In this document: positions 44,497 to 48,222 of the stretch, in pieces
Layout of the letters: each line of letters opens with the position of its first letter
Position numbering within the stretch: position 1 is the first letter of the stretch
From: Escherichia coli
Lineage (GTDB): Bacteria > Pseudomonadota > Gammaproteobacteria > Enterobacterales > Enterobacteriaceae
Length of the DNA stretch: 64,000 bases
Direction: 5' to 3' (one strand)
NCBI RefSeq assembly: GCF_009931435.1
Contig: NZ_CP043414.1
The notes under the pieces: generated by a model
Told to the model about the DNA's origin: nothing
Database searches by the model: none
Seen by the model: only the letters and a program-made list of their open reading frames with translations
Position numbers and translations under genes: made by a program

Positions 44497-45255
44497 ATGA
44501 GCCTGACCCTCACACTTACTGGCACTGGCGGCGCACAGGGTGTTCCCGCATGGGGCTGTGAGTGCGCGGCCTGCGCCAGAGCGCGGCGCTCACCGCAGTA
44601 TCGCCGCCAGCCATGCAGCGGCGTCGTGAAGTTTAACGACGCGATCACCCTGATCGACGCCGGACTGCACGATCTCGCCGATCGCTGGTCGCCCGGATCG
44701 TTCCAGCAGTTTTTGCTGACGCACTACCATATGGATCACGTGCAGGGGCTGTTTCCGCTGCGCTGGGGCGTGGGCGATTCGATCCCGGTCTACGGCCCGC
44801 CGGATGAACAGGGCTGCGACGATCTGTTTAAACATCCGGGCCTGCTTGATTTCAGCCACACGGTGGAGCCATTTGTGATGTTTGATTTGCAGGGATTACA
44901 GGTCACGCCGCTGCCGCTCAACCATTCGAAACTCACTTTCGGCTATCTACTGGAAACGGCACATAGCCGGGTGGCGTGGCTGTCTGACACCGCAGGCCTG
45001 CCGGAAAAAACGGTGAAATTTTTATGCAATAATCAGCCACAGGTAATGGTGATTGATTGCTGCCACCCACCGCGCGCGAATTCGCCACGCAATCACTGTG
45101 ATTTAAACACCGTGCTGGCGCTGAATGAAGTTATCCGCTCGCCGTGCGTGGTTCTGACACATATCAGCCATCAGTTTGATGCGTGGCTGATGGAGAACAT
45201 ACTGCCGTCAGGGTTTGAGGCGGGGTTTGATGGGATGGAGATTGGGGTGGAGTGA
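44497..45255 (+). CDS. phnP: Metallo-beta-lactamase-fold cyclic phosphodiesterase PhnP
   Basis: 252-aa ORF with HxHxDH motif ([10 protein letters not shown]). Confidence 0.9.
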
Positions 45256-45289
45256 TGGGTGAGGGGCGATGCCTGCTCTAAACTCAACA

Positions 45290-45598
45290 TCACCGCCCAT
45301 ACTCATCTTCCATTCTCCGCTCTTCATCTTCTAGCTGCCGACGCTCCTGATCCAGCTGGCGCTGGCGATCGTCCAGCTGCCTGCGGCGATCTTCATATTG
45401 TCTGCGCCGATCGTCGTTCACTTCACGCTGCCAGCCGTCGTCGCGCCAATCTTCATAGTCTCGCCCACGGTCAGGGTTATAAGCATCGTTAATCGCCTGC
45501 TGAATATTGCCAATGGTGTCGTCGATAATATCGGCCTGGGCCGGAACGGTGGACAGCGTGAGCAGGGTGAATAAAAGAAATAGCGGAAAACGTTTCAT
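45290..45598 (-). CDS. yjdP: Small secreted low-complexity protein YjdP (Arg/Asp/Glu/Gln-rich)
   Basis: 102-aa ORF with signal peptide (MKRFPLFLLFTLLTLSTVPAQA) and charged repeats (RRRQYEDRRRQLDDRQRQLDQERRQLEDEE). Confidence 0.8.
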   Translation of the reverse strand: MKRFPLFLLFTLLTLSTVPAQADIIDDTIGNIQQAINDAYNPDRGRDYEDWRDDGWQREVNDDRRRQYEDRRRQLDDRQRQLDQERRQLEDEERRMEDEYGR

Positions 45599-45666
45599 TA
45601 GCCAACCTCAAAAAGAAACTCTATCCACATTAGTCATTACTCATCCATGCAAGTAGTGGATGAATC

Positions 45667-45984
45667 TCAATTTTTCCGCTGCTCTATTGCCGTAATCGCC
45701 TCCACGCGTTGTTGATGACGACCGCCTTCGTACTGCGCGCCCAGCCACGCATCCACAATCATTTTTGCCAGTTCGAGGCCAACCACTCGTGAACCAAAAG
45801 CCAGTGCAACTTCACTGGCGTAATGCGGATAATCAGTGCGCTCTGACGACCTGGTTTCTTTATCAATCCCCTCACTCATTGACCATGAATAAAAGGCTGG
45901 CACAGCAACGCAGAATCCTGCGGTGCCAGCGACATGACCGCCCATTGCTCCGGTACGTTTTTTAATAAGAAACACCGGTTGCAT
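45667..45984 (-). pseudogene. rpiB: rpiB-like remnant: the C-terminal ~45 residues and a short N-proximal block match ribose-5-phosphate isomerase B, but the central part is missing and the N-terminus is diverged
   Basis: Translation ...ETRSSERTDYPHYASEVALAFGSRVVGLELAKMIVDAWLGAQYEGGRHQQRVEAITAIEQRKN matches RpiB segments as I recall them, but the ORF is 105 aa against ~149 aa for RpiB, with no match to the central catalytic region. Confidence 0.55.
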
Positions 45985-46236
45985 TGATTAATTGTGCTCA
46001 GTATTTGCCGAAGTACAATATATATAATAAATATATAAAACACCTCATATTATTTACAGAGATAATAAATTCGCGTACTTTTCCCTCTTCAGCACAAATG
46101 CCTAATAAAATGGCTCGTTCCGCTCACACTTCCACTTATTAAAATCGCAATTTCCCAATTATGATAACGCCAGCTTTAAATGACGTATTTTGCATGGATT
46201 ACATATTTACGACACAAATGATAAATGGAGATTTAT

Positions 46237-48222
46237 ATGAATAACTCTCGGTTATTCCGTTTGAGCAGGATTGTTATTGCGTTAACTGCCGCCAGCGGCA
46301 TGATGGTAAATACCGCTCACGCAACAGATGAAGCGAAAGCCGCCACTCAATATACCCAACAGGTTAATCAGAATTACGCCAAATCATTACCGTTTAGCGA
46401 TCGTCAGGATTTTGACGATGCCCAGCGCGGATTTATCGCCCCGCTGCTGGATGAAGGTATTCTGCGCGATGCGAATGGCAAAGTTTACTACCGCGCGAAT
46501 GATTACAAATTTGATATTAATGCCGCTGCGCCGGAAACCGTAAACCCCAGCCTGTGGCGTCAGTCGCAGATCAACGGCATTTCTGGTCTGTTCAAAGTCA
46601 CCGATAAAATGTATCAGGTGCGCGGCCAGGATATCTCTAACATTACATTCGTTGAGGGCGAGAAAGGCATTATTGTTATCGACCCACTGGTGACGCCGCC
46701 TGCCGCAAAAGCCGCACTTGACCTTTACTTCCAGCATCGTCCGCAAAAACCGATTGTTGCTGTTATTTACACCCACAGCCACGCCGACCATTATGGCGGT
46801 GTGAAAGGCATTATCTCTGAAGCGGATGTTAAATCTGGCAAAGTGCAGGTGATCGCTCCGGCAGGCTTTATGGACGAAGCCATCAGCGAAAACGTGCTGG
46901 CGGGTAACATCATGAGCCGCCGTGCGCTCTACTCTTACGGTCTGTTACTGCCGCACAACGCGCAAGGCAACGTGGGCAACGGCCTGGGCGTGACGCTGGC
47001 AACGGGCGACCCGAGCATTATTGCGCCAACCAAAACGATTGTCAGAACTGGCGAGAAGATGATTATCGACGGCCTGGAGTTTGACTTCCTGATGACTCCG
47101 GGTAGCGAAGCGCCAGCCGAAATGCACTTCTATATTCCGGCCCTGAAAGCCCTGTGTACCGCCGAAAACGCCACGCATACCCTGCACAACTTCTACACCC
47201 TGCGCGGCGCGAAAACCCGCGATACCAGCAAGTGGACAGAGTATCTGAACGAAACGCTGGATATGTGGGGTAACGACGCGGAAGTACTGTTTATGCCGCA
47301 CACCTGGCCGGTCTGGGGCAATAAGCATATCAATGATTATATTGGTAAATATCGCGATACTATCAAATACATTCACGACCAGACCCTGCACCTGGCGAAC
47401 CAGGGTTACACCATGAATGAAATTGGCGACATGATTAAGCTGCCACCTGCGCTTGCCAATAACTGGGCCAGCCGCGGCTATTACGGTTCTGTTAGCCACA
47501 ACGCCCGTGCAGTGTATAACTTCTATCTCGGCTATTATGACGGCAATCCAGCTAACCTACATCCGTACGGTCAGGTGGAGATGGGCAAACGTTACGTGAA
47601 AGCGCTGGGCGGTTCCGCCCGTGTCATCAACCTGGCGCAAGAAGCGAACAAGCAAGGGGATTACCGCTGGTCAGCAGAGTTGCTGAAACAGGTGATTGCC
47701 GCCAATCCGGGTGACCAGGTGGCGAAGAATCTGCAAGCGAATAACTTTGAACAGCTGGGCTATCAGGCCGAGTCCGCCACCTGGCGCGGTTTCTACCTGA
47801 CCGGCGCAAAAGAGCTGCGCGAAGGGGTGCATAAGTTCAGCCACGGCACCACGGGTTCTCCGGACACCCTTCGCGGGATGTCGGTCGAAATGCTGTTCGA
47901 CTTTATGGCCGTTCGCCTCGATAGCGCGAAAGCCGCAGGTAAGAATATCAGCCTGAACTTCAATATGAGCAACGGCGATAACCTCAACCTGACGCTGAAC
48001 GATAGCGTGCTTAACTACCGTAAAACGCTGCAACCTGAAGCCAACGCCTCTTTCTACATCAGCCGTGAAGATCTTCACGCCGTGCTGACCGGACAAGCCA
48101 AAATGGCGGATCTGGTAAAAGCGAAGAAAGCCAAAATTATTGGCAATGGCGCGAAACTGGAAGAAATTATTGCCTGTCTGGATAATTTCGATTTGTGGGT
48201 GAATATCGTAACCCCAAATTAA
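46237..48222 (+). CDS. yjcS: Putative alkyl/aryl sulfatase (metallo-beta-lactamase fold) YjcS
   Basis: 661 aa from the ATG at 46237 ([29 protein letters not shown], signal peptide); HxHxDH motif ([10 protein letters not shown]). Confidence 0.9.

Follow-up and report, generated by a model that had tools for sequence, protein, structure and literature searches.

A stretch of 64,000 nucleotides of Escherichia coli DNA (contig NZ_CP043414.1), referred to here as the window, carries a yjdP gene of 102 codons. A sequence-only reading of this DNA had set that length against roughly 109 codons in K-12 and proposed that the gene varies in repeat number by slippage. The locus raises the questions of what separates the two alleles, by which route the shorter one came about, and how often such changes occur. 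We consider it quite likely that yjdP is a stand-alone gene for an exported charged-helix protein, and that the five-unit allele of the window came from a six-unit parent through the in-frame loss of 21 nt.

Identity of the gene

The minus-strand ORF runs from ATG to TGA and comprises 102 codons plus the stop codon (Table 1). Its product scored 128.2 bits (curated cut-off 90) with the NCBIfam equivalog NF041443, ‘DDRRRQL repeat protein YjdP’, with residues 1–96 aligned to profile positions 1–101 of 101, which bears out the earlier identification as YjdP. In 5,404 of 5,426 complete E. coli genomes this DNA bears the annotation yjdP, and every homologue in the protein collection has the newer, precomputed Pfam label PF28054 YjdP. 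The window protein shares with the family the signal peptide, the DIIDDTIGNIQQAINDAY segment, the heptad array, the EDEYGR tail and the adjacency to phnP, and differs in having five heptads and the substitution S51W, whereas K-12 and most E. coli have six heptads. Existing catalogues already cover the gene, the family and its repetitive character, and GenBank already contains the exact protein encoded in the window.

In the local Pfam scan (E ≤ 0.1) the sole match was DUF7900, whose 15.5 bits fall short of its cut-off of 27, and searches of PHROGs and of PDB sequences with YjdP gave nothing usable. Foldseek comparison of the YjdP model with the PDB gave no match and, given that the model is essentially two helices, the fold search was uninformative. 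The names ‘Skp family chaperone’ and ‘RNase H-like nuclease’, attached by JGI to some homologues, were not reproduced by the Pfam scan. Membership in the Spy/CpxP (LTXXQ) or Skp/OmpH chaperones was likewise considered and set aside, the Pfam scan giving no match to these family profiles.

Table 1. Positions of the yjdP features in the window and the basis on which each was assigned
Feature	Position	Strand	Basis
yjdP coding sequence	45290..45598	-	ORF list, NF041443 score, annotation in relatives
Upstream spacer, 68 nt, with Shine-Dalgarno GAGG 8 nt before ATG	45599..45666	-	sequence
Predicted Sec signal peptide, residues 1–22 MKRFPLFLLFTLLTLSTVPAQA, cleavage after AQA	45533..45598	-	read by eye
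Conserved N-terminal helix (predicted) of the mature protein, residues 23–40 DIIDDTIGNIQQAINDAY	45479..45532	-	alignment, AF2
Acidic/aromatic linker, residues 41–61 NPDRGRDYEDWRDDGWQREVN, contains S51W	45416..45478	-	AF2 coil at 41–53
Heptad array, residues 62–96, five 21-nt units	45311..45415	-	periodicity, TRF, alignments, AF2
Deletion junction, TGA microhomology	45393..45395	-	enumeration of 21-nt deletions; TGACGATCGCCGCCGCCAGTT of the parental allele lost
C-terminal tail EDEYGR and stop codon	45290..45310	-	translation

Layout of the protein

Read by eye, the sequence MKRFPLFLLFTLLTLSTVPAQA followed by DII presents a basic n-region, a hydrophobic core and an A-x-A site, and because YjdP has no cysteine it has no lipobox. 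As judged from these features, YjdP is probably a small Sec-exported protein of the periplasm. The sequence-only reading had described a signal peptide followed almost entirely by repeats and quoted a repeat string (RRRQYEDRRRQLDDRQRQLDQERRQLEDEERRMEDEYGR) that is indeed present in the ORF product. The signal peptide stands, as seen by eye, but ‘almost entirely’ does not, given that residues 23–61, which make up 39 of the 80 mature residues, are non-repeat and highly conserved. The repeats account for about half of the mature 80-residue chain, and R, D, E and Q together for 51 of its 80 residues. The DIIDDTIGNIQQAINDAY segment in particular is nearly invariant from Escherichia to Citrobacter in an alignment of 32 sequences. 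Codon 51 (45446–45448), within the linker, is TGG (Trp) in the window and TCG (Ser) in nearly all other alleles compared.

The five units of the window read DDRRRQY, EDRRRQL, DDRQRQL, DQERRQL and EDEERRM, each unit being made up of two acidic residues, three Arg or Gln, one Gln and one hydrophobic residue. The tail that follows them has the family pattern E-[DE]-[DE]-Y-x-R.

The core of the signal peptide constitutes a second repeat within yjdP, with a 9-nt unit. Three imperfect copies are present in the window (TTCACCCTG, CTCACGCTG and TCCACCGTT) and three imperfect copies also in K-12. In Ecol_276 there are three perfect copies of this unit and the gene is 339 nt long, and the ST131 strain Ec394-330266 (L004:1447-1803) has five perfect copies of TTCACGCTG, encoding LFTLFTLFTLFTLFTLFTV, which gives a signal peptide of 31 residues and a protein of 118.

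Scanning 45150–46300 for the sigma-70 consensus gave no match near yjdP, and a terminator scan of the same interval gave only one terminator-like hairpin, located within the rpiB remnant described below. No RNA family was matched by an Rfam scan of 44900–46400.

Periodicity and predicted structure of the array

The periodicity of the yjdP array is above chance. DNA identity at a lag of 21 nt was 0.60, compared with 0.35 ± 0.047 in codon shuffles, of which none of 5000 reached 0.60, and protein identity at a lag of seven residues was 0.56, compared with 0.16 ± 0.057 (0 of 5000 shuffles). Tandem Repeats Finder likewise reported a period-21 array at 45351–45391.

AlphaFold2 (AF2) was run on the monomer with the 32-sequence alignment. 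In the resulting model a continuous helix spans residues 54–100 with block-mean pLDDT values of 84–94, a second helix, with pLDDT of about 60–72, takes in the signal peptide together with the conserved N-terminal segment, and residues 41–53 form coil. Overall, the mean pLDDT was 73 and the pTM 0.34, and as a model of the monomer it cannot separate a single helix from a coiled-coil oligomer. Residues of opposite charge are paired at i+3/i+4 spacing 30 times, compared with 17.7 ± 3.1 in shuffles, none of 2000 of which reached 30. The array is accordingly modelled, and here described only as predicted, as one long charge-zippered α-helix, and the N-terminal helix of the mature protein is predicted to be amphipathic as well as highly conserved.

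The array conforms to neither of two familiar helical types. In the window every seventh residue of the array is hydrophobic (Y, L, L, L and M in turn), a seam of the kind that is typically absent from ER/K single α-helices (SAH). With Y, F or L placed at heptad position a, position d is occupied by Arg (DDRRRQY, EDRRRQL and others), which departs from the a/d pattern of a canonical coiled coil. Given the hydrophobic residue at each seventh position and the Arg at d, the array fits the classical single α-helix as little as the canonical coiled coil.

Origin of the short allele

The K-12 allele (C600, MG1655) is 330 nt long, with 109 codons and six heptad units. In both protein and DNA alignments of the window with K-12 the sole gap is exactly 21 nt, or seven codons, and lies within the array, whereas the start, the signal peptide and the stop of the window gene align with K-12 base for base. 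The length given for K-12 by the sequence-only reading was thus correct, and the K-12 allele differs from that of the window in both length and sequence.

The nearest relatives of the window allele lie in genomes of similar arrangement. The 1.4 kb around yjdP in the window, including the als-deletion junction, is 97.3–98% identical to many complete genomes, and all 30 matches listed for this region are 21 nt longer than the window; two of them were fetched. The 330-nt yjdP of Z0117EC0005, which also lies in an als-deleted neighbourhood, differs from the window gene in two respects only, the 21 nt and a single-base change, TCG to TGG, that results in S51W.

To place the loss, every 21-nt deletion of this parental allele (L007:1691-2020) was enumerated against the window allele. 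Only deletion of gene nucleotides 204–224 through 207–227 (TGACGATCGCCGCCGCCAGTT and three equivalent placements) yields the window sequence, with one mismatch. The deletion produced a hybrid first unit at 45395–45415, which reads CGGCGCAGACAATATGAAGAT. The TGA microhomology at the junction forms part of a 13-nt near-repeat, TGA[C/A]GATCGCCGC, with a spacing of 21 nt between its copies. In the lineage of the window the exact repeats at this lag are 8–9 nt long, compared with 6–7 nt in K-12; the exact microhomology at the junction is 3 nt long and the units are imperfect, with 60% identity at lag 21.

The parental 330-nt allele, which is still present in the closest relatives, thus probably lost 21 nt in frame between its first two units. 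Most likely, adjacent units misaligned at replication, or short-homology recombination took place, at the TGA in TGA[C/A]GATCGCCGC. The proposal of variation by slippage is supported, with qualifications: a 21-nt loss at a short direct repeat fits slippage, and it fits short-homology recombination as well, the route being deduced from the junction. Loss of a whole heptad would leave reading frame and helical register intact while making the helix approximately 1 nm shorter. Since frame and register would both be kept, whole-unit variants would be expected to survive, and the family ladder of 3–8 units may in this way have been built by independent events.

Length variation across strains and the family

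The gene in the window is yjdP in a rare short allele from which exactly one repeat has been lost, and it is an ordinary length variant. Other length alleles were found in other strains. ST2747, the closest complete genome (97.1%), has a 309-nt gene in which unit 1 was lost at the 8-nt repeat GACGATCG. ECO21 carries a divergent allele, also of 309 nt, with another 21-nt deletion, and in the P0004-type allele unit 3 was lost, with GATCGCC at its bounds. An E. albertii allele of 123 residues contains a near-perfect 42-nt tandem duplication, and the O157:H7 allele, once fetched and aligned, proved to have the full 330 nt.

Across Escherichia and Citrobacter the array ranges from three to eight heptads. 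The region following GWQREV is 28, 35, 42, 49, 56 or 63 residues long, all multiples of seven, in 96 of 106 well-formed cluster representatives, in agreement with the earlier expectation that alleles would differ by whole repeat units. The remaining 10 have in-frame indels of 1–5 residues, mostly in the run of Arg codons CGCCGCCGC or in CGCCAGCGCCAG.

The frequency of these variants was gauged with the K-12 gene as query by taking 60 rows evenly down the ranking of 5,405 records. The gene was 330 nt long in 53 of them (~88%), 357 nt in four, 339 nt in one and 309 nt in one, and in the one remaining row it was interrupted by IS1. Among 5,426 complete E. coli genomes none carries the window allele at 99% identity or more; six match it at 95–99%, of which the one fetched (ST2747) has 309 nt. 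In the 80–90% identity band of the K-12 query there are 16 records, and the one fetched (ECO21) again has 309 nt. Repeat-number variation is thus rare and lineage-fixed, not frequent, and as length changes are infrequent and fixed within lineages, yjdP is not a hypervariable locus.

In one complete genome, that of strain FLI21 (L005:1501-2606), yjdP is split mid-gene by an IS1X2 insertion, so that this strain, at least, can do without the gene.

Flanking genes and the als/rpiB breakpoint

The genes phnP, ending at 45255, and yjdP, ending at 45290, are convergent, an arrangement common to K-12, ST2747 and O157. The spacer between them (45256–45289) is 34 nt in the window, compared with 146 nt in K-12. 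The approximately 111 nt extra in the K-12 spacer (L010:12138-12248; CCCCTCACCC...GGGGAGAGGG) have no counterpart in the window, and a G-quadruplex/hairpin element has been placed between yjdP and phnP (PMC5100583), the same place as this extra sequence.

On the other side, the earlier placement of the gene next to an rpiB/als breakpoint was confirmed, in that the C-terminus of rpiB is kept, alsK through alsR are missing, and yjcS comes next. Relative to K-12, 45257–45804 matches the 3’ part of rpiB together with yjdP, 45795–45874 matches an internal piece of rpiB, and 46013–48400 matches yjcS and its upstream region, with 138 nt between these last two (45875–46012) having no match in the K-12 locus. 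The minus-strand ORF at 45667–45984 has 105 codons, of which only the last ~45 residues match RpiB, with scores below the family cut-offs. This ORF is a remnant of rpiB left by the als deletion, with an additional internal loss of rpiB sequence. In relatives PGAP names it ‘RpiB/LacA/LacB family sugar-phosphate isomerase’. The als/rpiB junction as found in the window is present in 1,568 of 5,426 complete genomes, and the relatives examined carry a 330-nt yjdP. The breakpoint is a common configuration and is separate from the repeat change.

The order of genes around yjdP differs between species and strains, being rpiB remnant-yjdP-phnP in the window, hybrid kinase-yjdP-phnP in O157 and Citrobacter, rpiB-yjdP-glyoxalase in E. 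fergusonii and yjcS-yjdP-glyoxalase in E. albertii. Because yjdP is kept while both of its flanks change, it behaves as a gene in its own right, and nothing about its function can be read from its neighbours.

In O157 (L003:1485-1814, L015:285-614) yjdP departs from K-12 in its first ~9 codons (MKRHSTLF...) and in the DNA upstream of them, and both parts resemble the forms of E. albertii and Citrobacter (the latter L011 and L012). A hybrid histidine kinase (OI167 lmvK) occupies the place of rpiB and als in O157. From this 5’ difference the boundary of OI167 seems to lie within the signal-peptide coding region of yjdP, and yjdP has been given as the border of this EHEC island (PMC10128022).

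Alternative explanations for the length difference

The difference could be one of start-codon choice or annotation and not of repeats, and database entries of 133–177 residues do owe their length to frameshifts, read-through or upstream starts. For the window this is refuted by the alignments, which match K-12 base for base at start, signal peptide and stop and place the only gap in the array, and such an explanation has practically no chance of being correct. Short tandem repeats may also collapse in assemblies, so that the 21-nt gap could be a sequencing or assembly artefact of a repetitive stretch. The units are, however, too divergent for collapse, and four GenBank accessions as well as a Logan assembly record the exact 102-residue protein, on four contigs including a 5.2-Mb chromosome. 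An artefact is on these grounds extremely improbable; the recurrence of the protein under these accessions marks it as real but rare. If the allele is real, it could still be a polymorphism of long standing that came in from another lineage by recombination. The locus lies at a recombination-active junction, as seen in the als deletion, the OI167 replacement and the O157 crossover within the yjdP signal peptide, and other 102-residue alleles do occur in other lineages. Yet, the 21 nt aside, the window allele is a single base away from the local 330-nt allele, its flanks match als-deleted relatives, and the other 102-residue alleles have different junctions and more differences (97.1% identity for ST2747, far lower for ECO21). 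Import is therefore unlikely.

How the variation should be understood is a related matter, since the repeats could make yjdP a contingency locus, with frequent and selected length switching, phase-like or antigenic, of an exposed protein. Several independent indels have indeed accumulated in one short gene, of 21 nt and 42 nt in the array and of 9 nt in the signal peptide, along with further events of 3 nt and 6 nt in the CGC and CGCCAG runs. The common indels are nevertheless all multiples of three, so the gene is not switched on and off, and the units are not near-perfect repeats, being 60% identical at lag 21. Stability is also evident from the sampled genomes, in which a single length of 330 nt prevails in 53 of 60, from the ST131 allele, which has five perfect 9-nt units and an identity of 99% or more across 397 complete genomes, and from the 309-nt alleles, which look very rare, at one of the 60 sampled rows and at most ~22 of 5,404 genomes within the identity bands in which they were seen (one fetched per band). 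We regard a contingency locus as very improbable. In-frame loss of one heptad from the six-unit allele of close relatives, as an infrequent event in one lineage, is the reading carried forward here.

Expression, possible function and significance

The open-access literature on yjdP is thin, consisting of single table rows or sentences. Under a LolCDE inhibitor at two concentrations yjdP RNA rose 9.5- and 10.6-fold in an RNA-seq table whose upregulated genes also include rcsA, wca genes, cpxP and degP, and in which the entry for yjdP reads ‘function unknown, putative signal peptide’ (PMC5105897). In a study of acid-resistance regulation yjdP is listed among the ‘Top 20 repressed genes’ (PMC5217608).

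No homologue with a known function or structure was found by the Pfam, PDB sequence, PHROGs and Foldseek searches, so that any functional reading of YjdP is a guess. The best-supported guess is that YjdP is a periplasmic helper induced by envelope stress, with the conserved N-terminal part as its working surface. The heptad array may, again as a guess, be a spacer or solubilising helix whose length is loosely constrained. A more elaborate possibility, to which we attach little probability, is that the array is a length-tunable periplasmic spacer, that the N-terminal helix docks on a partner, and that the number of heptads (3–8, at ~1 nm each) sets a distance for stress sensing, which would make the ladder of lengths adaptive and not the outcome of neutral drift.

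The locus carries little weight for biology at large, and its value is modest and descriptive. It is a clean, small example of in-frame gain and loss of whole heptads at short direct repeats in which the parental allele survives in close relatives. YjdP is nearly universal in E. coli and reportedly induced by envelope stress, and the natural series of three to eight units, joined to a nearly invariant N-terminal segment, provides a ready set of constructs for its study.

Comparison with known helical systems

ER/K single α-helix domains are composed of Glu and Lys, typically have no hydrophobic seam and form parts of large eukaryotic motor or scaffold proteins. YjdP resembles them in its dense alternation of acidic and basic residues, its excess of i+3/i+4 pairs and its long AF2 helix. 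It differs in using Asp and Arg where the SAH domains use Glu and Lys, in having Y, F, L or M at every seventh position, where such residues are typically missing from SAH, and in being a small exported bacterial protein.

Among envelope proteins, the stress-induced periplasmic proteins Spy, CpxP and ZraP are, like YjdP, small, signal-peptide-bearing and helical, the last of these being a prediction in the case of YjdP, but they have no sequence relationship to it by the Pfam, PDB sequence and Foldseek searches. Lpp is a helical heptad protein of the envelope whose length shifts in whole heptads, as that of the predicted YjdP helix does. Lpp, however, is a trimeric lipoprotein whose a and d positions are hydrophobic, whereas YjdP lacks a lipobox and cysteine, has Arg at position d and is not known to be anchored at either end. 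Engineered changes in the length of Lpp alter the width of the periplasm.
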